The notes beneath the pieces were generated by a model. It was not told where the DNA came from and made no database searches. It saw nothing but the letters and a program-made list of their open reading frames with translations. Position numbers and translations under genes: made by a program. A stretch of DNA of 44,553 nt from sequence record SRR20825006_1783; one strand, written 5' to 3'. Positions 5,502 through 38,416 of the stretch are shown here, piece after piece; the first letter of the stretch is position 1, and the number at the start of each line of letters is the position of its first letter.

Positions 5502-7013
5502 ATGAAAATTGCTGTGCCAGACAGCGCAGTGGAGGCTATCCTCCCGGCTGTCGCCGACTTTTTGAGCGTGCCTAAGATGGTCGTGGGCGGCCAAAGCTGC
5601 GAGGCGCTTTCCGGCCAAACCTTTGCTGTCTACGATCCGGCAACAGGTGGAGAAATCGCTCAGGTGCCCGCGGGTGGTGTCGAAGATGTCAATGCGGCAG
5701 TGGCTGCCGCTCGCACGGCCTTTGAAGGCCCTTGGTCCAACATGAGCGCCATGGCGCGTCAGTCCCTGATGCTCAAGCTCGCGGATCTCATCGAGGAGAA
5801 TGGCGAAGAGTTGGCCCAGATCGAGACCTTGGAAAACGGTAAGAACGTGATGATTTCACGTCTCATCGAGGTGCAATCCTCCGCCGAATACATCCGCTAT
5901 ATGGCCGGTTGGGCGACCAAGATTTATGGACAGACCTTTGACGTGTCCATCGCCATCCCCGAGGGCACAAAATACCAGGCGCAGACCCGCAAAGAAGCCG
6001 TCGGCGTGGTTGCGGCGGTGACGCCGTGGAATTTCCCGCTCAACATGGCCGTCTGGAAAATCGCACCTGCATTGGCGGCGGGCTGTACCGTGGTGTTGAA
6101 GCCTGCCGAGGAAACACCGCTGACCTCGATGTATCTGGCGAAACTTTGCCTTGAGGCCGGGTTCCCTGAGGGGACGGTCAATGTCATTACCGGCACCGGT
6201 TCGGACGTGGGCGCGCCTTTGGTGGCGCATCCTGGGGTCGATAAAGTCACCTTTACCGGCTCGACAGAGACCGGAAAACTCATTGGCATTCAGGCGATGA
6301 AAGACATGAAGCCGGTGACATTGGAATTGGGCGGCAAAGCCCCGATGGTTATGTTCGACGATATGGATCTTGATCTGTTGGGCCCGGCAATCGGCATCGG
6401 TACGATGTTCAATTCCGGCCAAACCTGCACCTCGGGCACGCGGCTTTATATCCAAAAAGGCATCTACGAAAAGGCGCTCGACATCATCGCAGCCATCGCC
6501 GGGAGCCTGCCGATCGGTTCTGGGATGAACCCGGGCAATATGATCAATCCGCTGGTCTCAGCCAAACATCAGGCCCATGTCAAAGCCTGTATTTCCAAAG
6601 CGATCGAGCAAGGCGCAAAGCCCATTCTCAACGGGGCAGCCCCGAATGAGGGCTATTACGTTGCGCCGCAGATTTTTACCGAAACCACTCAAGACATGGC
6701 GATCATGCAGCAAGAGGTGTTTGGTCCGGTGATCTCAGTCACGCCGTTTGGCGACGCCGATGAGGCGATGACCATGGCCAACGATACGATCTATGGGCTT
6801 GGCGCGTCGATTTGGACCACGGATGTCAACAAAGTCATGCGCTACGTGCCGAAACTCAAAGCCGGAACAGTTTGGGTCAATGCCCACAACATCCCCGATC
6901 AAAACATGCCCTTTGGTGGCTTTAAACAATCGGGTGTAGGCCGTGAACATGGCGCAGGCGCACTTGAGAATTATCTCGAAACGAAATCGGTTTGCGTGGC
7001 GTATCCCGCGTAG
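5502..7013 (+). CDS. NAD-dependent aryl-acetaldehyde dehydrogenase (FeaB/StyD/TynC-like)
   Basis: PWNFP, GSTETG, catalytic Glu in TLELGGKAP, catalytic Cys in NSGQTCTSG. Segment YMAGWATKIYGQTFDVSIAIPEGTKYQAQTRKEAVGVV closely resembles phenylacetaldehyde dehydrogenases. SD GGAGG. Confidence 0.88.
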   Translation: MKIAVPDSAVEAILPAVADFLSVPKMVVGGQSCEALSGQTFAVYDPATGGEIAQVPAGGVEDVNAAVAAARTAFEGPWSNMSAMARQSLMLKLADLIEENGEELAQIETLENGKNVMISRLIEVQSSAEYIRYMAGWATKIYGQTFDVSIAIPEGTKYQAQTRKEAVGVVAAVTPWNFPLNMAVWKIAPALAAGCTVVLKPAEETPLTSMYLAKLCLEAGFPEGTVNVITGTGSDVGAPLVAHPGVDKVTFTGSTETGKLIGIQAMKDMKPVTLELGGKAPMVMFDDMDLDLLGPAIGIGTMFNSGQTCTSGTRLYIQKGIYEKALDIIAAIAGSLPIGSGMNPGNMINPLVSAKHQAHVKACISKAIEQGAKPILNGAAPNEGYYVAPQIFTETTQDMAIMQQEVFGPVISVTPFGDADEAMTMANDTIYGLGASIWTTDVNKVMRYVPKLKAGTVWVNAHNIPDQNMPFGGFKQSGVGREHGAGALENYLETKSVCVAYPA

Positions 7014-7020
7014 ACTGCAT

Positions 7021-7051
7021 GGCCCTGTCCCTTTCCCCGAGGGGCAGGGCC
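7021..7051 (+). terminator. GC-rich hairpin just after the aldehyde dehydrogenase stop (terminator or mRNA stabiliser)
   Basis: GGCCCTGTCCCT-N7-AGGGGCAGGGCC, no U-tract. Confidence 0.5.
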
Positions 7052-7256
7052 TAAAGATCCTGTGTGTCTGACACGCAGCTTACCCCGCGAAGCCCCCGCC
7101 ATAGAGGGGTCGCGACAACAGAGAGGAATGATCTGAAGATCGAGATGTACCCTCGGTCGGACGCCTTCCTTGTCACTGCAAAGCTCCCTCCCTCGTGTTG
7201 GCACCGCTGGCACGAACCGCTCTTTCTTTGTCCATTGCCAAGAGGCTCATCTCCCC

Positions 7257-8834
7257 ATGAATGCCCATACCTATCCTCAGCTCTCCGCCGATCTGAACGG
7301 CAAAACATTTGATTATATCATCTGTGGTGCCGGGTCCGCCGGCTGCGTGATCGCCGCGCGCCTGTCCGAGGACCCTGCGGTTTCCGTCCTTCTGGTGGAA
7401 GCAGGTCACGGTGACACGCCCGATATGGTCTCCACCCCGCTGCGGGTGATCGACATTTGGTTTTCCGATTACGATTGGGGCTTTTCGACGGTGCCGCAAA
7501 AACATGCCGGAAACCGCCAAGTCTATTGGCCGCGGGGCAAGGTCATGGGTGGCTGTTCGTCGATGAACGGCATGATCTATGTGCGCGGCCATCAGGCGGA
7601 TTATGACGCTTGGGCGCTTCAGGGCAATTATGGTTGGGATTGGAAATCTGTCCTGCCGTATTTCAAGAAAATCGAAGATTTTGAAGGCGGTGCGGATGAC
7701 TATCGTGCCACTGGTGGACCGCTACGTGTGATCAAGGACTACGAGCCGCACCCGGTGATGCAGGCTTTGGTCAAAGCCGGTGTCGAAGCAGGCATTCCCT
7801 ATAACGAAGATTACAATGGTGAGACCACTGACGGTATTTCGCGCATCCAGTTCAACATCAAAGAAGGTAGGCGCGCCTCAACGGCGGCGGGTTATATCGA
7901 CCCGATCCACAACCGCGCCAATCTGACGGTGATGAGCGGCGCGCGGGCCGAGAAGGTCTTGATCTCTGAGGGCGTTGTCACCGGGGTTCGACTTGCCACG
8001 GCTACGGGGTCGGTCACGCTCAATGCCGCCAAAGAGGTGGTGCTTTCTGCGGGGACTTTGGAAAGCCCGAAAATCCTCATGCTCTCAGGGATCGGTCCGA
8101 AAGAGCACTTGGCCGAACATGGCATTGGTTGCATCTGTGATCTGCCGGGCGTGGGCCAGAACCTGCATGACCACACCTTCCTGCCGATGGTCTATGAGAG
8201 TAAGCCGGACTACCCGTTCCCGACCGACCCGAACCTGCCACCGATGCAGGTGCATATGTTCACCAAATCGCATCCCGACATGGCGGTGCCGGACCTTCAG
8301 CCGCTGTTTTTCTCGGTGCCCGCCTATGCGCCGGGGCAGGAGGGGCCGATGAATGCCTTCACGCTCCACGCTGCGGGCATTCGTCCAACGTCGCGTGGTG
8401 AGATGCGGTTGACCGGGGCGTCGATCAACGACCCTGTCGCGCTCGATCCAAATCTTTTGTCGACCCAATATGACGTTGATTGCCTCGTCACCTCGATGAA
8501 GCAAATTCGCGATCTCACCTCTCAGCCTGCGCTCAAAGACTGGGTGACGCGCGAGGTCTATCCGGGGCCGGAAGTGCAAACGGATGAAGCGTTGGCAGAG
8601 TATGCCCGCTCTTTCGTAGGCAGCTATCACCATCAGGTTGGCACCTGCGCCATGGGCACCTCGGCCATGTCGGTCGTCGACCCTGAATTGCGGGTCTATG
8701 GCGTCAAAGGGCTGCGTGTGGCGGACGCCTCGATCATGCCCGCCGTGCCGTCCGGCAACACCAATGCTCCGGCCATCATGATCGGCGAAAAATGCGCTGA
8801 TCTTATCAAGTTCAACGTCTGTGCCAGCGTTTGA
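7257..8834 (+). CDS. GMC-family FAD oxidoreductase (choline dehydrogenase / aryl-alcohol dehydrogenase-like)
   Basis: DYIICGAGSAGC, WPRGKVMGGCSSMNGMIYVRG, GVGQNLHDH, His/Asn active-site pair in YHHQVGTC and SGNTNAP. ATG at 7257. Confidence 0.9.
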   Translation: MNAHTYPQLSADLNGKTFDYIICGAGSAGCVIAARLSEDPAVSVLLVEAGHGDTPDMVSTPLRVIDIWFSDYDWGFSTVPQKHAGNRQVYWPRGKVMGGCSSMNGMIYVRGHQADYDAWALQGNYGWDWKSVLPYFKKIEDFEGGADDYRATGGPLRVIKDYEPHPVMQALVKAGVEAGIPYNEDYNGETTDGISRIQFNIKEGRRASTAAGYIDPIHNRANLTVMSGARAEKVLISEGVVTGVRLATATGSVTLNAAKEVVLSAGTLESPKILMLSGIGPKEHLAEHGIGCICDLPGVGQNLHDHTFLPMVYESKPDYPFPTDPNLPPMQVHMFTKSHPDMAVPDLQPLFFSVPAYAPGQEGPMNAFTLHAAGIRPTSRGEMRLTGASINDPVALDPNLLSTQYDVDCLVTSMKQIRDLTSQPALKDWVTREVYPGPEVQTDEALAEYARSFVGSYHHQVGTCAMGTSAMSVVDPELRVYGVKGLRVADASIMPAVPSGNTNAPAIMIGEKCADLIKFNVCASV

Positions 8835-8859
8835 ACCGTGTGTTCCAAGGATATTCAAC

Positions 8860-10149
8860 ATGACAAAGCTCACCATGAATCGTCGTCACCTGATTAAATC
8901 CACCGCAGCGGCAACCCTGTTTGCGCCGTCGATCGTGTCTGCCCGCCGTGCCCATGCCGCGGGGGGCACCTTGCGGGTTGGGTATGTCTCTCCGCGCTCC
9001 GGCGCGTTGAGTCAAATCTCTGAAAGTGACGGCTTTGTCATTGACGCCGTGCGGGATACGTTGGGCGGTAAACTTGAGACGGCGGCAGGGGCGCTCGACA
9101 TCGAGATCATCGAAAAGGACACGCAGTCTGATCCGAACCGGGCGGGCGATATGGCCTCCGATTTGATCTACCAAGATGAGGTCGATCTTGTGCTCGTCGG
9201 GTCCACACCGGATACGACCAACCCGGTTGCGGACCTGTGTGAACTCAACGGCGTTCCATGCCTCTCTGCGGCCACCCCATGGCAGTCCTGGTACTTTGGC
9301 CGCGGTGGTGCGCCAATGGAGAAAAGCTTTACCTACACCAACCACTTCTTCTGGGGGTCTGAGGATCTTTTGGCGGTATATTTTGGCCTTTGGGCCGGAT
9401 TAGAAACGAATAAAGTCGTCGGCGCGCTTTGGCCAAACGACCCGGATGGGATCGCTTTTGCCGATCCGAATCTGGGTTTTCCGCCCGCTCTGTCTGAGGC
9501 TGGCTATACCCTTGTCGATCCGGGCCGCTACCAAAACCTGAAGGATGATTTCTCCGCCGAGATCAATGCGTTCAAATCCGCAGGGGTCGAAATCGTCACT
9601 GGTGTCATGCTTCCACCTGACTTGGCGACCTTCATGACACAGGCCAAACAGATGGGCTACACGCCGAAATTCGTCACTGTGGCCAAAGCTGCTTTGACTC
9701 CAAAAGGTGTTGAAAGTTTCCCGGATGGTTTGGGTGAAAACCTTTCCGGTGAATATTATTGGGGGCCACAATACCCCTATGTGTCGTCGCTCACCGGCCA
9801 ATCGACCGAGATGCTTTGTGCCGCTTACATGGAGGGCACAGGCAACCAATGGCTGCAAGGCACAGGCTATGTTCATGCCCTGTTCGAGGTGGCGGTGGAT
9901 CTGCTCAAGCGCACAGAAGATGTGACTCCCGAGGCCGTTGTGGCGGCGATGAATGCCACCGATTTGAACACCTGTGTTGGGCATATCAAATGGGGCGATT
10001 TCGCTTTGGCGCCAAACGTTGCCAAAACGCCGGTCGCAGGCGGGCAGTGGCAATCGGACGGTGAGGGGGGCTTTAAATTGGTCTGCACCTTTAACGATGT
10101 CGCGCCTGATATTGTGACCAACGGCACTTTGGAACCGAAGGTTTGGTAA
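8860..10149 (+). CDS. ABC transporter substrate-binding protein (LivK-like fold), Tat-exported
   Basis: Twin-arginine signal NRRHLIK...AHA; VGYVSPRSG, KDTQSDPNRA, TPDTTNPVAD motifs; followed by Liv-type ATPases and permeases. Confidence 0.88.
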   Translation: MTKLTMNRRHLIKSTAAATLFAPSIVSARRAHAAGGTLRVGYVSPRSGALSQISESDGFVIDAVRDTLGGKLETAAGALDIEIIEKDTQSDPNRAGDMASDLIYQDEVDLVLVGSTPDTTNPVADLCELNGVPCLSAATPWQSWYFGRGGAPMEKSFTYTNHFFWGSEDLLAVYFGLWAGLETNKVVGALWPNDPDGIAFADPNLGFPPALSEAGYTLVDPGRYQNLKDDFSAEINAFKSAGVEIVTGVMLPPDLATFMTQAKQMGYTPKFVTVAKAALTPKGVESFPDGLGENLSGEYYWGPQYPYVSSLTGQSTEMLCAAYMEGTGNQWLQGTGYVHALFEVAVDLLKRTEDVTPEAVVAAMNATDLNTCVGHIKWGDFALAPNVAKTPVAGGQWQSDGEGGFKLVCTFNDVAPDIVTNGTLEPKVW

Positions 10150-10916
10150 GTGCTGTGACTGAGGTATTTACTCCCTCGGGACCCGTGCTTGAGGCGCGGG
10201 CCCTGACCAAGCGCTACGGCGCTTTGACGGTCAATGATGCGGTGTCCTTTTCGCTCGCAGCGGGTGAGGCGCTTGGTGTGCTTGGTCCGAACGGTGCAGG
10301 TAAAACGACGCTGTTGAAAATGCTCGCGGGATCGACCGCCCCAAGCGCCGGACAGGTGCTCTATGACGGGCGCGATATGTCCGGGCTGACCGAACCCGCA
10401 CGCTGTCGCCAAGGCATTGTGCGGACCTCGCAAGTGCCGCAACCGTTTGAACAAATCTCGGTTTGGGAAAACGTTTTGACGGCGGCCTATCACGGCGGGG
10501 GCCATCATGGCGATGCGGCGGAAGAGGTGGCCTACACCGCGCTCAAGCGCACGGGACTTTTGGAACGCCACGATGAAATGGCCGGAGCGTTGTCATTGAT
10601 GGGGCGCAAACGGTTGGAATTGTCGCGGGCACTGGCCTGTGAACCCAAGGTGCTTTTGCTGGATGAAATCGCAGGCGGCTTGACCGATTTCGAGGTCCAC
10701 GACCTTGTTGCGCTGATCCAAGATATTCGTACCTCAGGTGTTTCGATCATCTGGATTGAGCATGTGGTGCATGCGCTTGTGGCTGTCGTGGATCGTCTCA
10801 TTGCCTTGGATTTCGGTCAATTGATTGCCGAAGGCACTCCCGACGAGGTGATGGAAGGCGAGGCCTTCAAACGCGCCTATTTTGGCGAGGATGCGATTTT
10901 AGAAGGGGCGCGCTGA
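10143..10916 (+). CDS. ABC ATP-binding subunit, LivG-like
   Basis: Walker A GPNGAGKTT, Walker B LLLDE, WIEH. True start may be GTG 10155 or later. Confidence 0.88.
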   Translation: MVSAVTEVFTPSGPVLEARALTKRYGALTVNDAVSFSLAAGEALGVLGPNGAGKTTLLKMLAGSTAPSAGQVLYDGRDMSGLTEPARCRQGIVRTSQVPQPFEQISVWENVLTAAYHGGGHHGDAAEEVAYTALKRTGLLERHDEMAGALSLMGRKRLELSRALACEPKVLLLDEIAGGLTDFEVHDLVALIQDIRTSGVSIIWIEHVVHALVAVVDRLIALDFGQLIAEGTPDEVMEGEAFKRAYFGEDAILEGAR

Positions 10917-11620
10917 TGGCTTTGCTTGAGGTTGAAAACCTATCCGCCGGATACGGATTGTTTCAGGCCCTTCGCGGAATTTCCTTGGCTGCTGAGGAAG
11001 GCGAAACCTTGGCCATCGTCGGGGCCAATGGTGCCGGCAAAACAACATTGCTGCGCACGATTTGTGGCGCGCTTCCGGCGATGACGGGTCGGGTGTCCTT
11101 TGACGGCACGTCGATTGAAAACAGTTCGGCGCATCAACTGGCCCGGCTTGGTATTTCGATGGTGCCAGAGGGGCGCAAACTGTTCCCAAGCCTCACGGTC
11201 GAAGACAATTTGATCATCGGCAGCTATCCAAAACGCAAAGGCTTTTGGACGGTGGAGCGCGTGTATGCGCTTTTCCCCGAATTGGTCAAACGCCGCAACA
11301 ATCGCGGGCTGGATCTGTCAGGCGGGGAGCAGCAAATGGTCGCGATTGGCCGGGCCCTGATGGCCAATCCCCGGTTGTTGTTGATGGATGAAATCTCCCT
11401 TGGCCTTGCGCCTATTGTGGTGAATCAAATTTACAAAAGCCTGCCGGAAATCAGCGGCCATGGCACCTCTATTGTCCTTGTTGAACAGGATTTGAACCGG
11501 GCACTGAGTGTTTCCAATCACGTCTATTGCCTGCTTGAAGGCCATGTTGAACTGTCCGGTCTTTCGGCCCAGATGGATCGCCAGGCCTTGATCGACGCTT
11601 ATTTTGGAGCAAATGCATGA
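10916..11620 (+). CDS. ABC ATP-binding subunit, LivF-like
   Basis: GANGAGKTT, VPEGRKLFP, LSGGEQQM, LLMDEISLGLAP, LVEQ. Confidence 0.92.
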   Translation: MALLEVENLSAGYGLFQALRGISLAAEEGETLAIVGANGAGKTTLLRTICGALPAMTGRVSFDGTSIENSSAHQLARLGISMVPEGRKLFPSLTVEDNLIIGSYPKRKGFWTVERVYALFPELVKRRNNRGLDLSGGEQQMVAIGRALMANPRLLLMDEISLGLAPIVVNQIYKSLPEISGHGTSIVLVEQDLNRALSVSNHVYCLLEGHVELSGLSAQMDRQALIDAYFGANA

Positions 11621-12489: not shown

Positions 12490-12491
12490 TC

Positions 12492-14632: not shown

Positions 14633-14675
14633 ACACGGCCGGAAAGGTCGGAACACACTCAATAGGAGACAGCAA

Positions 14676-28752: not shown

Positions 28753-28767
28753 TGCGCTCACACCAAC

Positions 28768-29898: not shown

Positions 29899-29922
29899 CC
29901 AAGTTTGGGAGGAGACGCTGAT

Positions 29923-30762: not shown

Positions 30763-30785
30763 TCCAGAGCGACAGTTTCCACGAC

Positions 30786-30812
30786 AAAGGGGCGCCGTAA
30801 GGCGCCCCTTTT
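30786..30812. terminator. Bidirectional intrinsic terminator between the dioxygenase and tctA
   Basis: Perfect AAAGGGGCGCC-GTAA-GGCGCCCCTTT. Confidence 0.88.
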
Positions 30813-30829
30813 GCATTTCAGCTCAGTCT

Positions 30830-32314
30830 TTAATGCGCTATTTTCAAGCGATGATTTTGGATGGCCGCGCGGATTGAGGAGGCGATGATCACCACGATAA
30901 CGATGGCAAGGAACGCCGCAATCGGTCGGTCTACAAAGTCCAGCGGGCTGGTGACGCGGGCCATGGCGGCGCGGAGTTTGACCTCCATGATATTGCCCAA
31001 AACCATGCCAAGGATGATCGGAACCACCGGAAGGTGGAGCCGTTTGAGGATCAGCCCAAGCACCCCGAAGGCGGCGGCAATGGCGCAATCCACGGCGGAG
31101 TTGCGCAGCGAATAGACGCCGACAAAACTCAGCATCAGGATCATCATCCCCAAGAACCGCGTGGGGATGCGGATCAACCGGATCAGCCAGTTGGAGGAGA
31201 CCAGCATAAACAGAATGACGATCACGTTGAGCGCCAAAAGCGCGATGTAGAGCGCGTAGATAAAGTCGATATGATCGCGGAACAGCGCCGGGCCGGGCAC
31301 CACGTTGTGGACGTAGAACACCGACAACATCATCGCGGTCAACGCCTCGCCGGGGATGCCAAGCGCCAAAAGCGGGATCATCGCGGCGGCGGGCACGGCG
31401 TTGTTGGCGGATTCGGAGGCGACGAGGCCTTCTTCGGAGCCTTTTCCGAATTTTTCAGGCGTCTTGGACCGTTTGCGTGCCAGAGTGTAGCTCATGAATT
31501 GCGCGGTGAATTCGCCGACGCCGGGGATCATCCCCATAACCACACCAAAGAATGATCCGGTGGCGGCAACGCGTTTGTATTTGAGCACGCCGAGCATCTC
31601 TTTGCCCATGCCGCCTTTGACCGGGGCGGCGTCTGGGGCGCTTTCTGGATCGACGAGTAAGGAGAAGGCCTGAGAGATCGCGAACAGACCCAAAACCACC
31701 ACAATCAGGTCGAGACCAGAGGTCAGCCAGTCTTGGCCAAAGGTGAAGCGCATGGTGTATTTCACCGGCTCCATGCCAACGGATTGCAATAAAATCCCCA
31801 GACCTGCCATCATGCCCGCCGCCGCGATCTGGCCGCGGTGAGCGACGATGACCAAAACGATGCCAAGCAGGGCCGCAAGGAAGATTTCGCGCGCGCCAAA
31901 CATCGGGGCGATTTTGGCCAAGAGCGGCGACAACAGGATCAAGGCGAGGATCGATAGGATGCCGCTGAAAAATGACGCGCCATAGGCAAGGCCGAGCGCT
32001 TTGGTCGCCTCGCCGCGTTGGGTCATCGGGTAACCGTCATAGGTGGTCAGTGCGTTCACCGCCGTACCCGGCGTGTTGATCAAAACGGCGGGCAGCGATC
32101 CCCCAAACATCGAAGACCCGTAAATCCCCAACAGCATCACCAACCCAACCAGCGGCGGCAAGGCAAAGGTGGCGGGGAGTAGGATTGCGATCGCCACAGC
32201 GGGGCCAACGCCCGGAATGGCCCCGATGACCACGCCGCCAATGGAACCAATCATGAGGGCCACCAAGACGTCGAAACTCATCAGGAGGGAAAGACCGGAA
32301 AGAAGCGCATCCAT
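30830..32314 (-). CDS. tctA: Tripartite tricarboxylate transporter large permease
   Basis: GAIPGVGP, INTPGT..N.LTTYDGYPM, FGKGSEEGL.ASESANNA, PLLALGIPG. Confidence 0.92.
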   Translation of the reverse strand: MDALLSGLSLLMSFDVLVALMIGSIGGVVIGAIPGVGPAVAIAILLPATFALPPLVGLVMLLGIYGSSMFGGSLPAVLINTPGTAVNALTTYDGYPMTQRGEATKALGLAYGASFFSGILSILALILLSPLLAKIAPMFGAREIFLAALLGIVLVIVAHRGQIAAAGMMAGLGILLQSVGMEPVKYTMRFTFGQDWLTSGLDLIVVVLGLFAISQAFSLLVDPESAPDAAPVKGGMGKEMLGVLKYKRVAATGSFFGVVMGMIPGVGEFTAQFMSYTLARKRSKTPEKFGKGSEEGLVASESANNAVPAAAMIPLLALGIPGEALTAMMLSVFYVHNVVPGPALFRDHIDFIYALYIALLALNVIVILFMLVSSNWLIRLIRIPTRFLGMMILMLSFVGVYSLRNSAVDCAIAAAFGVLGLILKRLHLPVVPIILGMVLGNIMEVKLRAAMARVTSPLDFVDRPIAAFLAIVIVVIIASSIRAAIQNHRLKIAH

Positions 32315-32325
32315 TTCGGAAACCT

Positions 32326-32865
32326 TTAGAAATTGACCATCATGAAGGTGCGGATGCTGTCGGGAAGATAGGCATACAGCGCGCCTGAGGGCACTTTGAC
32401 ATTGAGGCCGGCCTTAAACACGGCGACGACTGCGAAGCCGAAGACGGCGGCAAGGGCGAAGCTTTGTGCGCTGCGATAGCCAAGACGCCAGACCAGCAGT
32501 ACGGAGAAGAGAATGGAGGCGGGCAGGTACCCGATCACGGGCACGGCGAGCACATAGGCCAAAAACCACGCCACGAATTCCAGCGACCGCGCCCAATAGA
32601 GCACCTCTTTGCCACGCCCCGGACTGCGTTCAGAGGCGATTGAGCCGATCAAATGTATTGCGCCGAACCCGACCATCATGAAAACTCCCACAGCAGGCCA
32701 GAATGCGGGCTGGGCAAACAGCGGGGTTTTTTCGACCCAGCGGGTTTCTTGCGGCAAAAGCATCAGGCTTACGAGGGCGAAGACCATGAAAGCCGTGGCA
32801 AACACGAAATCGCCGGGGCGACGTTGACGCTGAAACAGCTCAACAAAGGATTTTAGGCGCTCCAT
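32326..32865 (-). CDS. tctB: TTT small permease
   Basis: Small 4-5 TM protein between tctC and tctA; QPAFWP, GYLPASILF. Confidence 0.85.
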   Translation of the reverse strand: MERLKSFVELFQRQRRPGDFVFATAFMVFALVSLMLLPQETRWVEKTPLFAQPAFWPAVGVFMMVGFGAIHLIGSIASERSPGRGKEVLYWARSLEFVAWFLAYVLAVPVIGYLPASILFSVLLVWRLGYRSAQSFALAAVFGFAVVAVFKAGLNVKVPSGALYAYLPDSIRTFMMVNF

Positions 32866-32955
32866 GGCGTGGCTCCTAAGGCATGAAGAAGAGACGGGAC
32901 CCGAGCAGCCCCGTCGTCAGTATATGAGAGCAGTGATGTCATCGCAGGCGTGTGA

Positions 32956-33891
32956 TCAGTCAATGTAATCGCTGATCCGTTGAAGCGTTGCGGTATCTTT
33001 GAGCATCTGTGCTTCGGACGCATCAATGTCGAGCCAATAGATTTCGGCGCCTGTGTCTGCGGCAATTTGTTGTGCGGCATCAGAGTGGATCACTTTCTCA
33101 GCGATGGCCGCGATTTTGTCGCGGGCCACTTGCGGTGTGTCCTTATGCACGAACAGGCCATTCCATGTGGAGAACGGCAGGTCCGCTGCGATCTCTCCGG
33201 CTGTTGGGACATCCGGCAAAAGCGGAATGCGATTGTTGGTCACCGACATCAGAATGTTGAGATCATCCAGACAAGGACGGATCAATTGCAGTGTGGTGTT
33301 GATGACATCGGCGTCCCCGGAGGCGAGTGTGTTGCAATCGAGCGCATCGAAGGCCGCATCAGAAGCGTAGGAAAAGCCGAGCTCTTTGGCGAGAGCAAGC
33401 GTGTGACGCGCGGGGCTTGTTTCGGAGCCGAAATGGCCCAAAGCGACGTCGTGATCTTTGGCGTAGGCGGCAAGCTCTGCCATGGTGGTGTAGGGCGCGT
33501 CACCCGCTGCGGCGACGACGAACGGATAGCTCAAGAAAATGCCAACAGGCTCAAACGGGTTGGGGTCAAGCGGACCGATGCCAATGTATGGACCGACCAT
33601 GGGCACGTCGATCACGAAGGAGCCGACAGTGTAACCATCCGCCGGAGCCAGCGCCACGTCAACCGCACCGGGGAAGGGGCCACCGCCGCCGCCGGGTTTG
33701 TTCACCACGGCTGCGGGCACGCCGTAGGTGGCCTGAAATTCGTCCGCGATCATGCGGGTCAGGATGTCCTCCAAATCGCCGGGCGGAAAGGGAACGACAA
33801 ACTCAACGGGTTTTTCGGGATATTCGGCCGAAGCTGCCAAAGGCATAGCGGCAAGCACGGCGGCGGAGCCGATTTTCAAAAGCGTGGTCAT
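32956..33891 (-). CDS. tctC: TTT substrate-binding protein (TctC/Bug)
   Basis: Signal peptide, YPEKPVEFVVPFPPG, VVNKPGGGG, APADGYT, LPDVPT, WNGLFV. SD AGGAG. Confidence 0.9.
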   Translation of the reverse strand: MTTLLKIGSAAVLAAMPLAASAEYPEKPVEFVVPFPPGDLEDILTRMIADEFQATYGVPAAVVNKPGGGGGPFPGAVDVALAPADGYTVGSFVIDVPMVGPYIGIGPLDPNPFEPVGIFLSYPFVVAAAGDAPYTTMAELAAYAKDHDVALGHFGSETSPARHTLALAKELGFSYASDAAFDALDCNTLASGDADVINTTLQLIRPCLDDLNILMSVTNNRIPLLPDVPTAGEIAADLPFSTWNGLFVHKDTPQVARDKIAAIAEKVIHSDAAQQIAADTGAEIYWLDIDASEAQMLKDTATLQRISDYID

Positions 33892-34034
33892 AGTTTCTCC
33901 TGTCGAGCGTATCAGCGACTTTGTAGGCCGGTATTTGTTTTTATATGCGATGTACCGCCATCCAATGAGTCTGTGAGAGCATCAGAGGTCAGTTTCACTT
34001 TGCCCCCTAAACATGTCATCCACCCAGTTTTCCG

Positions 34035-34073
34035 CCATTGCAAAACGCGCCAAAAAAGCGATAATTTGCGCAA
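34035..34073 (-). promoter_or_regulatory. Candidate AraC-family activator site upstream of tctC
   Basis: Minus strand TTGCGCAAATTATCGCTTTTTTGGCGCGTTTTGCAATGG; 25 of 39 positions identical to the site at 35358-35396; half-sites 21 bp apart. Confidence 0.65.
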
Positions 34074-34106
34074 GTTCCTTTTCCAAACAGATGGAAATTT
34101 AAACAG

Positions 34107-35135
34107 ATGGCAGATGCGACGCACGGCCATGCAGCAATTCGCAGTACGGTGCTTGGATCCGTTCTTGATCGTTTGATTGCGCGAGGCGTTTCGACTCAGC
34201 CGCTTTTATCGAAACATGGAATGAGCCTTGATATATTGAAGGATCCCTATGCGCGACTTTCAGTGATGGAATACGCGGGATTTATGGAAAGTGCCGCCGC
34301 TCTATCCGGGGACGAGCATATCGGGGCCCGGATCGGAAGCGACATTCGTGCCGGGGATCTTGGTCCAATGGGCATCCTTTTGTCCCTTTCGCGGTCAATT
34401 TATGTCGGAATTGATCGGATTGTGCGGTCTACGCGGTCGCTTCAAACAGGCACCGAAGTTGCGCTCATCGAAAATGGCGATGATGTGTTTTGGTCCTATC
34501 GTTTGGTCGATGGCCACATCTGGCCCCGCAGGCAAGATGCGGAATTCACCCTTGTCGCAACCACGCAGGTGATCCGCGACAATTTTATCAGTCGCTGGGC
34601 GCCACAACAGGTTCATTTCGAACATGTGGAGCCAGAAAGCGCACAGTTTTTACGTCGATATTTTGGGTGCCCGGTGCTTTACGGTCAGGCGACAAACCGG
34701 CTGGTGATGGATCGTGGCCCGATGTTGGAGATTTACCGTGCGGAGGACACTGCGTTGGTGTCTATGTTGGAACGTCACATCGCGGATTTGATCGAGAAGA
34801 CACCGCGACGCTCCACGCTTACGGAAGCGACGCGCTCCATCGTCTCTTCGTCTCTCGGGTTGCGGCCCGTGTCGGTTGAGCGGGTGGCAGAAACCCTAGG
34901 CCTGTCCTCACGCAACCTTCAGCGCAAGCTGGCGGAAGAAGGCACAAGCGTTCGGATTTTACTTGATGAAATCCGGCGAACGCGAGCCGAAATGCTCTTG
35001 CAGGAAGGCACGCAAAGTGTTGGCCGCATTGCGACGGCATTGGGATACGCCGACGGCACAGCCTTTTGGCGCGCCCATAAACGATGGTCCGAACATTCGC
35101 CGCGCCAAGTGAAGGCATCGGGGTCGTCGCTATGA
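34107..35135 (+). CDS. AraC-family transcriptional regulator with N-terminal ligand-binding domain (OruR-like architecture)
   Basis: VHFEH, YFGCPVLYGQ.TNRL; C-terminal double HTH VAETLGLSSRNLQRKL..EG and IATALGYADGTAFWRAHKRW. Confidence 0.9.
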   Translation: MADATHGHAAIRSTVLGSVLDRLIARGVSTQPLLSKHGMSLDILKDPYARLSVMEYAGFMESAAALSGDEHIGARIGSDIRAGDLGPMGILLSLSRSIYVGIDRIVRSTRSLQTGTEVALIENGDDVFWSYRLVDGHIWPRRQDAEFTLVATTQVIRDNFISRWAPQQVHFEHVEPESAQFLRRYFGCPVLYGQATNRLVMDRGPMLEIYRAEDTALVSMLERHIADLIEKTPRRSTLTEATRSIVSSSLGLRPVSVERVAETLGLSSRNLQRKLAEEGTSVRILLDEIRRTRAEMLLQEGTQSVGRIATALGYADGTAFWRAHKRWSEHSPRQVKASGSSL

Positions 35136-35357
35136 CCGAGGGTGTTTTGCGCGACATGCGGGCAATCTGATCATGTGTGCCGCGCGGGGATTCGCTATGG
35201 GTGGCCATGGAAAATGCGCCACAACATCAAAGCGCTTAAATTTCGCGCAGACCTTAGAAAAACCCGCACAGAGATTGGAATCCTTGAAGATAAAGGGGTT
35301 CCGCGATGGCTGCGCCTAAATTGAAAATGCCGCTGCAGCGTGTGGATAAGGCTCGGA

Positions 35358-35396
35358 TGGCGTAAACTATCGGAAAAATGACGCGCCGCGCAATGG
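35358..35396 (+). promoter_or_regulatory. Candidate AraC-family activator site upstream of tynB-like gene
   Basis: TGGCGTAAACTATCGGAAAAATGACGCGCCGCGCAATGG; twin of the tctC site; half-sites TGGCG and TGACG 21 bp apart. Confidence 0.65.
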
Positions 35397-35494
35397 GCAA
35401 ACCTGTCTGCAATCTCGTTTCTGGTCATCAGATCGTCGCCCGTGTTCATTCGGAACCATGGCGGCCCATGACACAGCGACCAAAAGAGAGCCCT

Positions 35495-36634
35495 ATGACA
35501 GACTTGCCCAAAATCGATTTCATCTACCTCAATGAACAAGACATGATCAAAGCAGGCGTGACCGATATGGCCGGTTGCGTGGATGCCATGGAGGACATGT
35601 TCGTCCTGCTGCACAAAGGCGATTATCGCATGGCGGGCGCGAACAATGACAGCCACGGTGCGATGGTGGTTTTTCCCGAAAATTCGCCCTTTCCCAACAT
35701 GCCAAAACCCACGGCGGATCGCCGTTTCATGGCGATGCCGGCCTATCTTGGTGGCGCGTATGGCACCACCGGTGTGAAATGGTATGGCTCCAACATTGCC
35801 AACCGGGACAAGGGCCTGCCGCGGTCCATTCTGATGTTCACGCTCAACGATACCGATACGGGTGCGCCGCTGGCGATCATGTCGGCAAACCTGTTGTCGG
35901 CTTACCGCACGGGCGCGGTGCCGGGGGTCGGCGCCCGTCATCTGGCACGCAAAGACTCGAAAGTGGTGGCGGTCTATGGTCCCGGCGTGATGGGCAAAAC
36001 CTCCCTTGCGGCTTTCATGGTGGCGTGTCCGGGCATTGACACTTTGAAAATTCAGGGCCGGGGCCAAAAGAGCCTCGACAGTTTCATCTCCTGGACCAAA
36101 GAGACCTATCCGCAGATCACCAACATCGAGATCGTCACCGACATCGAAACCCTCGTGCGCGGTTCTGACATTGTGACCTATTGCGCCTCTGGCGAGACCG
36201 GTGACGTGTCGAAATACCCGATTGTGAAACGCGACTGGCTCAAACCCGGTGCGTTTCTGTCGATGCCCGCGTCCTGCGAAATTGACGAGGGCATGGAGCA
36301 AAAAGACGTGCGCAAGGTGATGGATAACATCGGCCTCTATGAGGCGTGGTTCGAAGAGCTGCCGAAACCCGCCCACGTCCACGTTCCGGTCATTGGTGTG
36401 CGGTTCATGGACATGATCCATGAGGGTAAAATGACCCATGATGATCTCGAAGACCTCGGTGATATTTGTGCGGGGGCCACTCCGGGTCGGCAAAATGATG
36501 AGGAGATCATCATGCTCTCCGTTGGCGGGATGCCGGTCGAAGATGTGGCTTGGGGTACAACCGTTTACCGCACTGCGATCGCCAAAGGCATCGGCACCAA
36601 GCTCAACCTGTGGGACGTGCCTGTTCTGCGTTGA
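35495..36634 (+). CDS. tynB: Ornithine cyclodeaminase/mu-crystallin family protein, tyramine oxidase subunit B (TynB)-like
   Basis: IDFIYLNEQDMI.AGV.DM..C, GDYRMAGANNDSHG, RFMAMPAYLGG, KWYGSN, MSANLLSAYRTGA, GPGVMG, SVGGMPVEDVAW. ATG 35495 with SD GAGAG. Confidence 0.8.
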   Translation: MTDLPKIDFIYLNEQDMIKAGVTDMAGCVDAMEDMFVLLHKGDYRMAGANNDSHGAMVVFPENSPFPNMPKPTADRRFMAMPAYLGGAYGTTGVKWYGSNIANRDKGLPRSILMFTLNDTDTGAPLAIMSANLLSAYRTGAVPGVGARHLARKDSKVVAVYGPGVMGKTSLAAFMVACPGIDTLKIQGRGQKSLDSFISWTKETYPQITNIEIVTDIETLVRGSDIVTYCASGETGDVSKYPIVKRDWLKPGAFLSMPASCEIDEGMEQKDVRKVMDNIGLYEAWFEELPKPAHVHVPVIGVRFMDMIHEGKMTHDDLEDLGDICAGATPGRQNDEEIIMLSVGGMPVEDVAWGTTVYRTAIAKGIGTKLNLWDVPVLR

Positions 36635-36667
36635 TTTGAGTATCCATTTGAAACAGAAAGAAAAAAC

Positions 36668-37090
36668 ATGACAAAAATTGTCAAAGTTAAAACCGGTGCC
36701 AAGCTGGAACAGCTCAGCAGCTATTCCCGCATTGTGATGGTCGACAACTGGATTTCGGTGTCGAACACCGCCGGGCGCAACCCGCAGACCAAAGAGATTC
36801 CCGAAGACCTGCGCGAACAGACGCTTCAGGTGTTTGAGAATATCGAAAATGCGCTCAAAGCCGTGGGATCGGGACTTGAGGATGTGATCTCGACCCGCGT
36901 GTTCATCCAAACGCCCAGCGACACCCCGGCTGTGATGGAGATTTTCGGCGAAAAATTTCGTGGCGTTGATCCAACCACCACGGTGACCTGTCCGCCGCTT
37001 GGCTCCTCTGTCTACAAAGTTGAGATCGAGGTCAGCGCCTACCGCGGCGCGTCCAAAGCCGAGATCGAATACATCGACACGTCGCTTTGA
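36668..37090 (+). CDS. Rid (YjgF/YER057c/UK114) family protein, non-RidA subfamily
   Basis: YSRIVMVDNWISVSNTAG, EQT.QVFENIE.AL, LEDV, KVEIEVSA. The catalytic Arg position appears to be Thr. Confidence 0.85.
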   Translation: MTKIVKVKTGAKLEQLSSYSRIVMVDNWISVSNTAGRNPQTKEIPEDLREQTLQVFENIENALKAVGSGLEDVISTRVFIQTPSDTPAVMEIFGEKFRGVDPTTTVTCPPLGSSVYKVEIEVSAYRGASKAEIEYIDTSL

Positions 37091-37123
37091 TCGCTCCACA
37101 TCCCCTCTTTCAAGGACTGCCCC

Positions 37124-38416
37124 ATGGCCCCCAAAACCGCCCCCGTCCAAACCGCCACTGAGGCACCTAAATCCACCTCTGTTGTCATCATCGGCGGTGG
37201 AATTGTCGGGGTGACGGCGGCTTTGACCCTCGCGGAGCGCGGGGTCTCCGTCACCGTTTTGGAAAAGGGCCGGGTCGCGGGCGAACAATCCTCGCGCAAT
37301 TTGGGCTGGATTCGGAAAACATCGCGTGCGCCGAAAGATGTGCCGATGTCTTTGGCCTCGGATGCGCTTTGGGCGACGATGGCGCAGCGTACGGGCGTGG
37401 ATGTCGGGTATCGGCAAGAGGGCATTTTATTCGCCGCCAAAACTGAGGCAGAAATGGAGATGCATCGCGCATGGCTTGCCTCGGTGGCGGAGTATAACCT
37501 CGACAGTCGGATGGTGACGGACAAAGAGATTGCGGAGCTGGTTCCGGGGGGAGGGACGTCTTGGGCCGGGGGGATTTACACCCCCTCGGATGGCTACGCC
37601 GAACCGACGATTGCCCCGATCGCCATTGCAAATGCCGCCGTCGCCAAAGGGGCTGTGATCGTCGACAACTGCGCGGTGCGCACACTGGTGCGGTCTGCCG
37701 GGAAAGTCAGCGGTGTGGTGACGGAAAAAGGCGAAGTCTCCTGTGATCATGTCATCCTCGCGGCTGGGCTTTGGTCGCGCAAATTCTTGGGCAATATGGG
37801 GGTCTCTTTCCCGACTTTGCCTTTGGTCTGTTACGCCATTCGCACCGCGCCCATGGAGGGGCCGACACATATCGCCGTGGGGACGCCGGATATGTCGTTC
37901 CGCAAGCGGATGGATGGGGGCTTTACGGTCTGTCAACGCGGTGCGGTGGGGTCGCCTTTGGTTCTTGACCATGCGCTTTTGGGGATGAAATACCTGCCGA
38001 TGTTCAAACATGGCCGCAACATGTTGCGTATTTCTTTGGGGCGAGAGTTTATCGAAGATTTCAAACTCGCGCGGCGCTGGTCGCCTGATCGCATGTCGCC
38101 ATTCGAGAAAGTGCGTACCATGGACCCGCGTGTGAATACCGGTATCAATGCCGAAGCGATGGCCAATATCAAAACCTACTGGCCAGCTTTTGCGGAGATC
38201 AAATCCGCTGAAGAATGGGGCGGCACGATGGATATCACGCCGGATTCGCTACCCGTCATTGGTGGGATCGACGGGGTTGGAGGGCTCACGCTTGCCACGG
38301 GTTTTTCAGGCCATGGGTTTGGCACTTCGCCTGCGGCAGGGCAACTTGCCGCCGATTTGGTGATGGGCGTCCCACCGATTATTGACCCAAGCCCCTATCG
38401 GTTTGATCGGTTTTGA
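37124..38416 (+). CDS. FAD-dependent oxidoreductase of the DadA/DAO family (TynA-like amine or amino-acid dehydrogenase)
   Basis: VVIIGGGIVG, EKGRVAGEQSSRNLGWIR, WGG.MDITPDSLPVI, ATGFSGHGFG.SPAAG. Confidence 0.85.
   Translation: MAPKTAPVQTATEAPKSTSVVIIGGGIVGVTAALTLAERGVSVTVLEKGRVAGEQSSRNLGWIRKTSRAPKDVPMSLASDALWATMAQRTGVDVGYRQEGILFAAKTEAEMEMHRAWLASVAEYNLDSRMVTDKEIAELVPGGGTSWAGGIYTPSDGYAEPTIAPIAIANAAVAKGAVIVDNCAVRTLVRSAGKVSGVVTEKGEVSCDHVILAAGLWSRKFLGNMGVSFPTLPLVCYAIRTAPMEGPTHIAVGTPDMSFRKRMDGGFTVCQRGAVGSPLVLDHALLGMKYLPMFKHGRNMLRISLGREFIEDFKLARRWSPDRMSPFEKVRTMDPRVNTGINAEAMANIKTYWPAFAEIKSAEEWGGTMDITPDSLPVIGGIDGVGGLTLATGFSGHGFGTSPAAGQLAADLVMGVPPIIDPSPYRFDRF

Follow-up and report, generated by a model that had tools for sequence, protein, structure and literature searches.

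The DNA analysed here, a window of 44,553 nt from record SRR20825006_1783 of a marine Celeribacter, carries at positions 5502–38416 an island that joins genes for indole-3-acetate (IAA) breakdown (iac) to genes for amine, alcohol and amide processing and for trihydroxybenzene ring opening (Table 1). Genes were called by Pfam and NCBIfam profile searches and by sequence searches of the PDB, which recovered, with some corrections, all the parts that a sequence-only reading of the same DNA had named. The four importers it had claimed were borne out (a Liv-type ABC system, TRAP 1, TRAP 2 and a TTT system), as was the full iac cluster, to which we add an IacI-like gene and a MarR gene that it had missed. 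At least four transcription units are present, on both strands, together with three regulators of the MarR, AraC and DeoR families, the last encoded just outside the island. An open reading frame at 25273–25803 (+) was rejected as a gene, being the antisense shadow of the MarR gene.

Table 1. Features of the island, their positions in the window and the evidence for each call
Feature	Position	Strand	Evidence
Arylacetaldehyde-dehydrogenase-like ALDH (FeaB/StyD-like)	5502–7013	+	Pfam Aldedh, 555 bits
GMC-family alcohol oxidoreductase	7170–8834	+	Pfam GMC_oxred_N, GMC_oxred_C
Liv/Urt-type ABC importer (binding protein, two ATPases, two permeases)	8821–13523	+	Pfam Peripla_BP_6, ABC_tran x2, BPD_transp_2 x2
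HDAC-family amidohydrolase, candidate small-molecule deacylase	13526–14632	+	Pfam Hist_deacetyl, 259 bits
TRAP importer 1 (DctP, DctQ, DctM)	14460–17611	+	Pfam DctP/DctQ/DctM
IacI-like NTF2/SnoaL protein	17674–18240	-	Pfam SnoaL_4, 49.5 bits; divergent from iacH
iacH, amidase	18492–19652	+	Pfam Amidase, 247 bits; heads conserved iacHABCDEFG row
iacA, flavin-dependent monooxygenase	19649–20800	+	Pfam Acyl-CoA_dh_2
iacB, small protein	20847–21209	+	Position between iacA and iacC
iacC and iacD, Rieske dioxygenase alpha and beta	21265–23033	+	Pfam Rieske, Ring_hydroxyl_A, Ring_hydroxyl_B
iacE (SDR), iacF (ferredoxin reductase), iacG (flavin reductase)	23033–25276	+	Pfam adh_short; Fer2/NAD_binding_1; Flavin_Reduct
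MarR-family regulator, IacR-like	25291–25776	-	Pfam MarR, 35.7 bits; divergent from TRAP2-MAR-HQD operon
TRAP importer 2	25902–28752	+	Pfam DctP/Q/M
Maleylacetate reductase (MAR)	28840–29898	+	PDB 3hl0, 3w5s (named maleylacetate reductase), 359–362 bits, full length
Hydroxyquinol 1,2-dioxygenase-type intradiol dioxygenase (HQD)	29905–30762	+	PDB matches; likely start ATG 29923
TTT importer (TctA, TctB, TctC)	30830–33891	-	Pfam TctA/TctB/TctC
AraC-family regulator, QhpR-like	34107–35135	+	NCBIfam QhpR, 235 bits (below cut-off, 250)
TynB (OCD/mu-crystallin family)	35378–36634	+	NF004848 'tyramine oxidase subunit B', 706 bits (above cut-off, 362)
Rid-family protein	36668–37090	+	Pfam Ribonuc_L-PSP
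FAD oxidoreductase (flavoprotein)	37124–38416	+	Pfam DAO

Candidate feeder genes

The top NCBIfam model for the ALDH is phenylacetaldehyde dehydrogenase StyD (663 bits, below the cut-off of 850), and among PDB chains it matches 4qyj and 4o5h best, of which 4o5h bears the name phenylacetaldehyde dehydrogenase; orthologues with 68–76% identity adjoin iac or HQD in eight other loci. The GMC enzyme reaches 506 bits with the choline dehydrogenase model, below the cut-off of 605, and has an orthologue (72%) at the same position in Martelella, where the ALDH and GMC genes are followed by the same five ABC importer genes. The HDAC-family protein matches bacterial HDAC-like amidohydrolases over its full length (423–453 bits), its top PDB chains being of the HDAH/PA3774 type (5li3/5g0x) or named dimethoate hydrolase and propanil hydrolase. 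Its orthologue in Martelella (65%) lies directly before the IacI-like gene, and this kept position between the ABC importer and iac suggests that the substrate is a small-molecule amide related to indoles. The sequence-only reading had gone further and proposed an N-deacetylation step, for which the only evidence is the HDAC family, the position and near relatives named amide hydrolases; this was overstated, and N-deacetylation of acetylated indoleamines by this protein is a guess. The binding protein of TRAP 1, whose true start probably lies after 14632, has as its top PDB chains TakP/SmoM 2hzk and the 'ketoacid-binding protein' 7ug8, a likeness to keto-acid binders that the pathway proposed below leaves unexplained. 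TRAP 1 orthologues (70–73%) lie beside AraC-TynB in Martelella.

The genes downstream of the AraC regulator had been read as a TynB/TynA-like pair; TynB stands, and its partner was corrected to a Rid-family protein and a flavoprotein. The trio, a candidate arylethylamine-deaminating module (35378–38416), is kept as a unit in Martelella, Gemmobacter, two Azospirillum species and Shinella, and in Martelella, Gemmobacter, Shinella and Sagittula the amine module has an AraC gene (40–45% identity) nearby. The tyn genes of P. putida U and TynA/FeaB/FeaR of E. coli follow the same logic, an AraC-type activator governing the conversion of the amine through the aldehyde to the arylacetate; TynB of the island scores above its curated cut-off and the ALDH is of the phenylacetaldehyde dehydrogenase type. 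The island differs in its L-amino-acid-deaminase-like flavoprotein and in the linkage of the trio to iac, not to hpa genes. The trio may match the P. putida U tyn genes one for one, in which case the Rid protein might correspond to TynA. In E. coli, TynA belongs to the copper amine oxidases and is unrelated to TynB. Among PDB chains, the flavoprotein matches Proteus L-amino acid deaminase best (5fjm, 264 bits). That this relative acts on amino acids, not amines, counts against the proposed pathway, as do the scores of the ALDH, GMC and AraC proteins, each below the curated cut-off of its best named model.

The trio, the aminotransferases of other loci and the ALDH could instead act on tyramine, phenylethylamine or dopamine, with the arylacetates leaving to pathways elsewhere and the neighbouring Iac proteins handling IAA only. 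Such substrates would fit the NCBIfam name of TynB, the top models of the ALDH (phenylacetaldehyde dehydrogenases), a paaZ gene at the edge of the Sagittula locus and TynB homologues on Klebsiella, Pantoea and Rahnella plasmids. However, TynB lies approximately 5–25 kb from iac in the window, C. baekdonensis, Martelella, Gemmobacter, Shinella and both Azospirillum records, Pfam and NCBIfam searches found no homoprotocatechuate or homogentisate genes in the island, and the dioxygenase and reductase would be left without a hydroxyquinol source. We thus regard this explanation as improbable.

The iac cluster and the linked ring-fission genes

The iac genes occupy 18492–25276 in the order iacH, A, B, C, D, E, F, G, which is that of the published iacHAB(I)CDEFG (PMC12502551). 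Three relatives of iacA (65–67% identity) carry the JGI name indole-3-acetate monooxygenase, and the NCBIfam models related to iacC/iacD include anthranilate 1,2-dioxygenase. Pfam and NCBIfam searches with iacB gave zero matches; the gene is kept (42–97%) between iacA and iacC in 18 of the 18 loci with that position in view. The clusters of P. putida 1290, Paraburkholderia phytofirmans PsJN, Acinetobacter (iacR-iacHABICDEFG) and Marinomonas have the same genes in the same order and likewise include a MarR regulator and an IacI-type NTF2 gene, although the latter is found between iacB and iacC in the published clusters and upstream of iacH, in divergent orientation, in the island. In 10 loci, an orthologue of the IacI-like gene (72–82%) is likewise divergent and similarly placed, relatives with 32–42% identity lie between iacB and iacC in five, and Thioclava has an NTF2 gene annotated at the iacI position. 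In the published accounts, catechol is the end product and the clusters lie near catABC, whereas the ring-fission genes linked in the island are those for HQD and MAR, and amine, alcohol and amide feeder genes are attached.

Martelella has a MarR annotation at the corresponding place; in the window, the coordinates leave a 126-bp gap between it and the start of TRAP 2. This importer, whose binding protein has 4p56 as its top PDB chain (235 bits), follows or adjoins iac in 14 of the 18 other loci seen and is a candidate for indoleacetate uptake as a system that travels with iac.

The five top PDB chains for the HQD are all of the hydroxyquinol type (225–434 bits), with 8r2x, a 6-chlorohydroxyquinol 1,2-dioxygenase, at 434 bits, PnpC at 262 and 1tmx at 245, while (chloro)catechol enzymes score at most 145. 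Both HQD and MAR are full-length close relatives of solved members of the hydroxyquinol branch of the 3-oxoadipate pathway (PnpC, Nocardioides 1tmx, the GraC-type reductase 3w5s). In a tree of 91 rows, the nine iac-linked HQDs lie on one side of one branch (SH-aLRT 99), and three other Celeribacter dioxygenases are placed elsewhere. Few positions are specific to the iac-linked clade: fixed differences from 77 other hydroxyquinol dioxygenases occur at only 2 of 285, and the iac-linked HQD therefore looks like an ordinary hydroxyquinol enzyme. Known feeders of hydroxyquinol are hydroxylases acting on resorcinol, nitrophenol or chlorophenols; in the island, by contrast, only the Iac system is a candidate for this role, with a hydroxylated indoleacetate as its substrate. 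TTT orthologues (75–80%) are found between HQD and ALDH in Sagittula.

Linkage across iac loci and genomes

We examined 21 iac loci, taking as linked those with a hydroxyquinol-type dioxygenase within ~10 kb of iac. Ten loci are linked, with differing gene orders: the window, C. baekdonensis, Celeribacter HF31, the Rhodobacteraceae genomes G432 and G674, Sagittula E-37, Martelella AD-3, Shinella PSBB067, Azospirillum B510 and A. lipoferum 4B. Within the stretches seen, eight of these have an amine module (the TynB trio in six, a class-III aminotransferase instead in G432 and Sagittula), as opposed to 1 of the 11 loci lacking HQD, that of Gemmobacter, which has the module and an ALDH with iac. 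Eight of the 10 have the ALDH next to iac or HQD; in the other two, it was out of view. Two loci count against the pathway proposed below: Gemmobacter lacks the dioxygenase, and in Martelella no reductase accompanies it in the 50 kb seen. Martelella, Shinella, A. lipoferum and G432 have adjacent cat genes. Overall, iac, ALDH, amine module and HQD/MAR are repeatedly linked in several Alphaproteobacteria orders.

Among 401 Rhodobacteraceae genomes, iacC is present in 9, the dioxygenase in 57 and both in 3, only modestly above the ~1.3 expected (9 x 57/401), and the argument for a pathway rests on physical linkage, found within ~10 kb in all three, and on the tree. All 10 linked loci fall inside one 14-row clade of the IacC tree and are therefore related, not independent events; block horizontal transfer followed by shuffling could produce the same picture. 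Clustering of the island parts exceeds chance: other genera also have these parts beside iac, differently arranged.

An alternative view, that unrelated catabolic cassettes have accumulated as a mosaic in a variable genomic region and form no integrated pathway, would account for the multiple transcription units, strands and regulators of the island, for the location of the HF31 TynB gene on another contig and for the second Celeribacter genome, G569, in which iac has a different context without these modules. It is very improbable given that the same module combinations recur across genera and that the dioxygenase and IacC trees are concordant.

Less easily set aside, if still unlikely, is that the island handles tryptamine, tryptophol and IAA only, via catechol, the HQD and reductase serving some other hydroxyquinol-yielding compound as mere neighbours of iac. 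Indeed, HQD is common without iac (in the family sample above, and in 77 of 79 loci around close homologues), a separate cat-type cluster in the nearest genome, G001, could take catechol, and in Gemmobacter and Novosphingobium iac is accompanied by amine- or cat-type genes but by no hydroxyquinol enzyme. Yet the linkage spans varied gene orders and several bacterial orders, the iac-linked dioxygenases form a single clade, and the conserved set has no other hydroxyquinol-forming enzyme. The window has HQD, reductase and the iac-associated TRAP importer in one operon beside MarR; in Sagittula, the aminotransferase and ALDH genes flank those for HQD and reductase, all on one strand.

A proposed route for indole-ethylamines

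Our preferred reading, to which we give a probability of roughly 0.55, takes the island for a catabolic supercluster that is centred on Iac, has two ring-fission exits and handles indole-ethylamines, the related acids and alcohols and perhaps N-acyl forms. The TynB/Rid/flavoprotein module, under the AraC regulator, would convert an arylethylamine to the aldehyde, the GMC enzyme would oxidise the corresponding alcohol, and the StyD/FeaB-like ALDH, as its family suggests, would yield indole-3-acetate. IacA of C. glathei does not oxidise tryptamine (PMC7225977), and such an amine-to-acid feeder would therefore be needed. IacA, IacE, IacCD and the other Iac proteins would then remove the pyrrole ring. 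Unsubstituted IAA would give catechol, destined for a cat-type cluster elsewhere in the genome, and an indoleacetate with a hydroxyl at position 5 or 6 (for example, 5-HIAA derived from serotonin) would give hydroxyquinol, which the dioxygenase and reductase of the TRAP 2 operon would take to 3-oxoadipate. In the weakest step, the HDAC-family enzyme and the ABC importer may free the amine from N-acetylated forms.

Removal of the pyrrole ring by Iac is known for IAA in other bacteria. Apart from the Iac enzymes, the conserved set has no oxygenases, and for this reason a 5- or 6-hydroxy indole would explain a hydroxyquinol product. The hydroxyl at C5 or C6 becomes the third hydroxyl of 1,2,4-trihydroxybenzene; this chemistry is sound. 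It matches the hypothesis of the authors of PMC12502551 that Iac converts substituted IAA to substituted catechols, 5-Cl-IAA blocking growth of iac-carrying Acinetobacter only during growth on IAA. A literature search found no paper linking iac to hydroxyquinol and, within the portions of the sources it covered, no report of 5-hydroxy-IAA conversion by Iac enzymes.

The toxicity of 5-Cl-IAA makes substituted IAA a real hazard (PMC12502551), and the hydroxyquinol exit might serve other ring-substituted indoles (marine halogenated hydroxyindoles, 6-hydroxy compounds), or act as a safety valve against toxic substituted catechols, in place of serotonin-type substrates. The name of the closest solved HQD relative and the marine genera among the hosts are consistent with such a role. 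However, chlorocatechol routes require a cycloisomerase and a dienelactone hydrolase, both lacking in the island, the regular partners (amine modules and arylacetaldehyde dehydrogenase) point to an ethylamine side chain, and the same set occurs in plant-associated Azospirillum and Shinella. Serotonin and 5-HIAA are, moreover, the commonest known natural 5-hydroxyindoles. We consider this role unlikely.

The earlier interpretation is thus partly supported, by comparison across genomes. Its 'complete' pathway with 'no missing step' was too strong: the TynB step is an inference, the catechol branch lies outside the island, and so do the steps beyond 3-oxoadipate, the island's last product, with pcaF, pcaI-family genes and the cat-type cluster found outside it in G001. 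The choice of serotonin/5-HIAA as candidate substrate is a supported inference, and the supercluster probably also serves unsubstituted tryptamine/IAA. The recurrence of this combination in distant bacteria would fit an undescribed route for consuming serotonin-like compounds.

Gene content and layout of the Celeribacter island

The window comes from a Celeribacter (Rhodobacteraceae), and among named records it is nearest to C. baekdonensis DSM 27375 and Celeribacter sp. HF31. The same island is present in the nearest genome, G001, which encodes proteins 99-100% identical to those of the window and was used for comparison. Genes were mapped from an ORF listing and from family scans (Pfam, NCBIfam), with the choice of ORFs in relatives guided by GC3. 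Every item of the parts list that the sequence-only reading had drawn up for the island was recovered as a real gene in this manner; two genes had been overlooked, those encoding the MarR regulator and an IacI-like NTF2 protein.

Features of the island and of its flanks (strand stated where the gene lies on minus)
Feature	Coordinates	Strand	Remark
ubiT/U/V	2639-5105		
ALDH	5502-7013		
GMC oxidoreductase	7170-8834		
Liv-type ABC importer	8821-13523		
HDAC-family amidohydrolase	13526-14632		
TRAP importer 1	14460-17611		
NTF2/SnoaL gene (IacI-like)	17674-18240	minus	
iacH, A, B, C, D, E, F, G	18492-25276		
MarR gene	25291-25776	minus	
TRAP importer 2	25902-28752		
Maleylacetate reductase	28840-29898		
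Intradiol dioxygenase	29905-30762		
TTT importer	30830-33891	minus	
AraC regulator	34107-35135		
TynB	35378-36634		
Rid-family protein	36668-37090		
FAD oxidoreductase	37124-38416		
Right flank: glpR (minus), glpD, ugpC-like ABC system	38505-44553		Glycerol-3-phosphate use

The glpR, glpD and ugp-like genes of the right flank lie outside the island. The left flank (393-5105) encodes a protein like cytochrome oxidase subunit III and a di-iron repair protein of the YtfE/RIC type. It also carries ubiT-ubiU-ubiV, the genes of oxygen-independent ubiquinone synthesis, each of which scores above cut-off (UbiT 53.1 versus 46.9, NCBIfam). G+C is higher in the left flank (0.62-0.63) than in the island (0.55-0.59). 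For an empty-site comparison of the edges, UbiV was searched for and not found in two other Celeribacter genomes, G569 and HF31, and we therefore draw no island borders.

Domain scans identified iacA (an ACAD-like flavin monooxygenase), iacB, iacCD (Rieske dioxygenase), iacE (SDR), iacF (reductase), iacG (flavin reductase) and iacH (amidase), as well as the IacI-like NTF2 gene and a MarR gene of the iacR type. The iac genes form a single co-directional row, iacHABCDEFG, which agrees with the published order iacHAB(I)CDEFG and identifies the row as an iac cluster. Three relatives of IacA, at 65-67% identity, carry the JGI name indole-3-acetate monooxygenase. While an IacI-type gene lies between iacB and iacC in clusters elsewhere, the IacI-like gene of the window has moved upstream; its relatives (32-42% identity) are found between iacB and iacC in other clusters, and in Thioclava an annotated NTF2 gene occupies the iacI position. 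By homology, the NTF2 gene of the window corresponds to IacI.

The MarR gene is arranged tail-to-tail with iacG, and a divergent gap of 126 bp separates it from the genes of TRAP importer 2, reductase and dioxygenase, which follow one another with intergenic gaps of 88 and 7 bp. This spacing, together with the position of the MarR gene, indicates that the ring-fission genes share an operon with an importer that travels with iac, beside a regulator of the iac type. Inverted repeats of at least 10 bases were absent from the five intergenic regions searched, and for this reason no operator is proposed. A familyless ORF of 176 aa ('orf176', 25273-25803, plus strand) was rejected as an antisense shadow of the MarR gene. 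When used in tblastn it hits the MarR gene in other loci (30-93% identity), a trap for ORF-based annotation at such GC.

Candidate enzymes of ring fission and of amine, aldehyde and amide conversion

On sequence grounds, the island dioxygenase is of the hydroxyquinol type. Its top five PDB chains are all hydroxyquinol or chlorohydroxyquinol enzymes (225-434 bits, versus at most 145 bits for catechol and chlorocatechol enzymes), and none of the NCBIfam catechol and chlorocatechol models attains its cut-off. The alignment to 8r2x is full-length and keeps the His-x-His motif (RPAHTHF against RPAHMHF/RPAHLHF), whose histidines we take to be iron ligands. Just 2 of 285 positions are fixed and different when the iac-linked enzymes are compared with 77 other hydroxyquinol dioxygenases, and the iac-linked enzymes thus probably keep the ordinary substrate. 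The adjacent reductase aligns over its full length with 3hl0, 3w5s and 3jzd at 351-362 bits; named alcohol dehydrogenases score no higher than 112 bits, which places the reductase among the maleylacetate reductases of the Fe-ADH superfamily. Together, hydroxyquinol dioxygenase and maleylacetate reductase lead to 3-oxoadipate. Two other ring-fission routes were considered and rejected: for a chlorocatechol route, the island contains no cycloisomerase or dienelactone hydrolase, and for a homoprotocatechuate route it holds no such genes.

TynB scores 706 bits (709 for the G001 copy) against a cut-off of 362 for NF004848, 'tyramine oxidase subunit B'. It is accompanied by a Rid-family protein (TIGR00004, 52.8 bits, below the cut-off of 106) and by an FAD oxidoreductase, which among PDB entries is closest to Proteus L-amino acid deaminase; no TynA model was among the NCBIfam matches, and the literature searched on tynB offered nothing mechanistic. 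Plasmids of Klebsiella pneumoniae, Rahnella, Pantoea and Chimaeribacter also carry TynB homologues, at 70-74% identity (records H17, H18, H21, H23 and H25).

The ALDH likely works like the phenylacetaldehyde dehydrogenase StyD/FeaB: StyD is its top model (663 bits, below the equivalog cut-off of 850), and phenylacetaldehyde dehydrogenases are also its best structural matches. The GMC enzyme remains under the cut-offs for choline dehydrogenase BetA (506 versus 605 and 436 versus 732 bits), leaving membership of the GMC family as the assignment that holds. A role of the GMC enzyme and the ALDH in choline/betaine use was rejected, since both score below cut-off and their context is conserved with iac. 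The HDAC-family protein covers positions 7-297 of the 298 of the Hist_deacetyl profile (259 bits, Pfam) and matches 5li3 and 5g0x at approximately 453 bits, as well as chains named dimethoate hydrolase and propanil hydrolase; with a full domain and its likeness to bacterial HDAH, it belongs to the class II HDAC-family amidohydrolases. The binding protein of TRAP importer 1 (14700-15710) is closest to TakP/SmoM and to a chain named 'ketoacid-binding protein', which suggests an alpha-keto acid ligand, a compound that has no place in the pathway proposed below. Its orthologues, at 70-73% identity, lie beside the TynB module in Martelella.

Linkage of hydroxyquinol genes to iac across genomes

Hydroxyquinol dioxygenase is otherwise common without iac linkage: among 79 loci around the closest homologues of the island enzyme, iac was found only in the two Celeribacter loci. 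In 401 Rhodobacteraceae genomes, iacC was present in 9 and the dioxygenase in 57; the three that carry both (G001, G432 and G674) have them at a distance of about 10 kb or less, and the best dioxygenase match of the remaining six iac carriers is at most 44% identical, or there is none. A class-level sample (iacC in 3 of 401 genomes) was set aside as too sparse. Further loci were added from plasmid records of Sagittula stellata E-37, Martelella sp. AD-3, Shinella sp. PSBB067, Azospirillum sp. B510, A. lipoferum 4B, Gemmobacter fulvus, Novosphingobium sp. EMRT-2 and a Thioclava.

The sequence-only reading had called for a synteny search on whether the modules co-occur across genomes, and in a subset of iac loci they do. 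The dioxygenase lies beside iac in 10 of 21 iac loci. Nine of these ten also carry the reductase (Martelella is without it in the 50 kb seen), and an amine-removing module is present in 8 of the 10 within the stretch seen; the loci are kin, and such counts, like those of tree rows, do not represent independent events. The window, C. baekdonensis, Martelella, Shinella and both Azospirillum have the TynB-Rid-flavoprotein trio as this module, and Sagittula and G432, both of which are without TynB above cut-off, have a class-III aminotransferase. Of the other two, G674 was covered by a stretch too short to show the module, and in HF31 TynB lies on a separate contig. Among the 11 loci without dioxygenase, the amine module occurs in Gemmobacter only. 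Wherever the relevant side of the locus is visible, the dioxygenase has a StyD-like ALDH with it, often in the order reductase-dioxygenase-ALDH, and in Martelella an ALDH-GMC-ABC-HDAC row immediately precedes the IacI-like gene, with a decayed version in Gemmobacter. Gene order varies among genera, indicating that the linkage is not one frozen block.

In a 91-row dioxygenase tree (quick IQ-TREE), a branch with SH-aLRT 99 separates the nine iac-linked rows from all others, and three other Celeribacter dioxygenases place elsewhere. The iac-linked reductases cluster less cleanly in a FastTree tree, together with three unlinked Celeribacter rows, a result compatible with one origin as well as with more than one. 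All ten dioxygenase-linked loci fall in one 14-row clade of the 19-row IacC tree (support 92), a pattern that fits one gain and two losses.

Several other gene sets were observed at these loci. In six iac loci without hydroxyquinol enzymes (L099-L103 and the Thioclava locus, L118:10336-12118), a class II aldolase follows iac-TRAP2, preceded in five by an ApbA/PanE-type reductase; in L103 the aldolase alone was seen. The pair is found in none of the ten dioxygenase-linked loci, an apparent mutual exclusion. For Marinomonas, too, the literature mentions an 'aldolase, reductase' set of this kind. In Sagittula (L107:21969-26421) and G674 (L096:2564-7049), a cytochrome P450, a glutamine-synthetase-like protein that weakly matches gamma-glutamylputrescine synthetase, and a second AraC gene lie downstream of iac-TRAP2, with a glutamine amidotransferase annotated in Sagittula only; this set may serve to process an amine by gamma-glutamylation. 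A small Dabb (stress-responsive A/B barrel) protein, encoded at L098:7719-8078 and with relatives of 56-69% identity in loci L112, L114, L115 and L116, precedes the dioxygenase in Martelella or the reductase-dioxygenase pair in G432, Shinella and both Azospirillum, and is absent from the window.

Relatives of the island were also detected in RNA libraries. Two seawater libraries of one study contain contigs of a relative, approximately 93% identical, that cover all of 18450-38440 with gene order preserved; genes of both strands are found on one 13-kb contig, so that DNA carry-over is possible, and two other libraries gave short low-depth pieces only. These contigs report the presence of relatives, not expression or co-transcription, and a close relative that shares the island arrangement was abundant in that seawater sample.

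A candidate route for indoleamines with a hydroxyquinol exit

In the proposed pathway, an indole-ethylamine would be converted to the aldehyde and then to the indoleacetate by the amine module and the ALDH, with the alcohol fed in by the GMC enzyme, and Iac would strip the pyrrole ring. The conserved set contains no oxygenase besides Iac, and the third hydroxyl of hydroxyquinol would thus have to come from the substrate. By ring numbering, the catechol carbons derive from C7a and C3a, with C5 para to C7a, and this hydroxyl corresponds to indole position 5 or 6. Serotonin and 5-HIAA are the commonest such hydroxyindoles. Iac would turn 5-HIAA into hydroxyquinol, which would pass through maleylacetate to 3-oxoadipate. 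An HDAC-family aryl-acylamidase could, in some members, open amides of the N-acetylserotonin/melatonin type as an entry; this N-deacetylation step is a guess from conserved position and amide-hydrolase relatives.

The Iac route is described as leading from IAA through 2-oxo-IAA and DOAA to catechol, and C. glathei IacA is reported not to oxidise tryptamine (PMC7225977). That Iac carries ring substituents into the catechol has been proposed for 5-chloro-IAA (PMC12502551). Unsubstituted tryptamine and IAA would exit as catechol. A cat-type cluster lies elsewhere in the G001 genome, which also contains pcaF and pcaI-family genes, and cat-type genes adjoin iac in Martelella, Shinella, A. lipoferum and G432. 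A second intradiol dioxygenase of G001 (G001:C1:314000-318000; L006:6340-10646) is 41% identical to that of the island and below all curated cut-offs. It neighbours a muconate cycloisomerase (over cut-off), a 129-aa ORF, an alpha/beta hydrolase and a LysR gene, relatives of this locus (66, 56 and 74% identity) adjoin iac in Shinella, and it is probably the catechol exit.

The sequence-only reading had taken the island as a candidate complete pathway from N-acetylserotonin and serotonin through 5-HIAA and hydroxyquinol to 3-oxoadipate. Gene families, layout and clade-specific linkage over several Alphaproteobacteria orders speak for the course from indoleamine to hydroxyquinol, the deacetylation step being the most conjectural part, and a proposed Iac pathway with amine entry and hydroxyquinol exit is partly supported. 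We give a probability of roughly 0.4 to the joint reading that this iac lineage, spanning marine Celeribacter and Sagittula and soil- or plant-associated Azospirillum, Shinella and Martelella, is a dedicated growth pathway for serotonin/5-HIAA as well as tryptamine/IAA, with amine entry, hydroxyquinol exit and, in some members, HDAC entry. The idea is directly testable, since cultured and non-pathogenic strains carry the set (C. baekdonensis DSM 27375, Sagittula stellata E-37, Azospirillum sp. B510 and Martelella sp. AD-3).

Serotonin, tryptamine and their acids are signals in animals, plants and probably algae. In the main texts searched, no work joined iac to hydroxyquinol, maleylacetate, serotonin or 5-HIAA catabolism, and no genetically defined bacterial route for consuming serotonin, tryptamine or their acids was found. 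If true, the proposed pathway would be the first such route for serotonin mineralisation, and the iac lineage, the dioxygenase clade and the amine module would together provide a marker set for serotonin-consuming bacteria in marine, plant and gut settings. It would also place the TynB/Rid/flavoprotein module, which is poorly understood, and a bacterial HDAC-like enzyme in a physiological context, explain how iac carriers escape poisoning by ring-substituted indoleacetates, and extend the reach of the Iac pathway beyond auxin.
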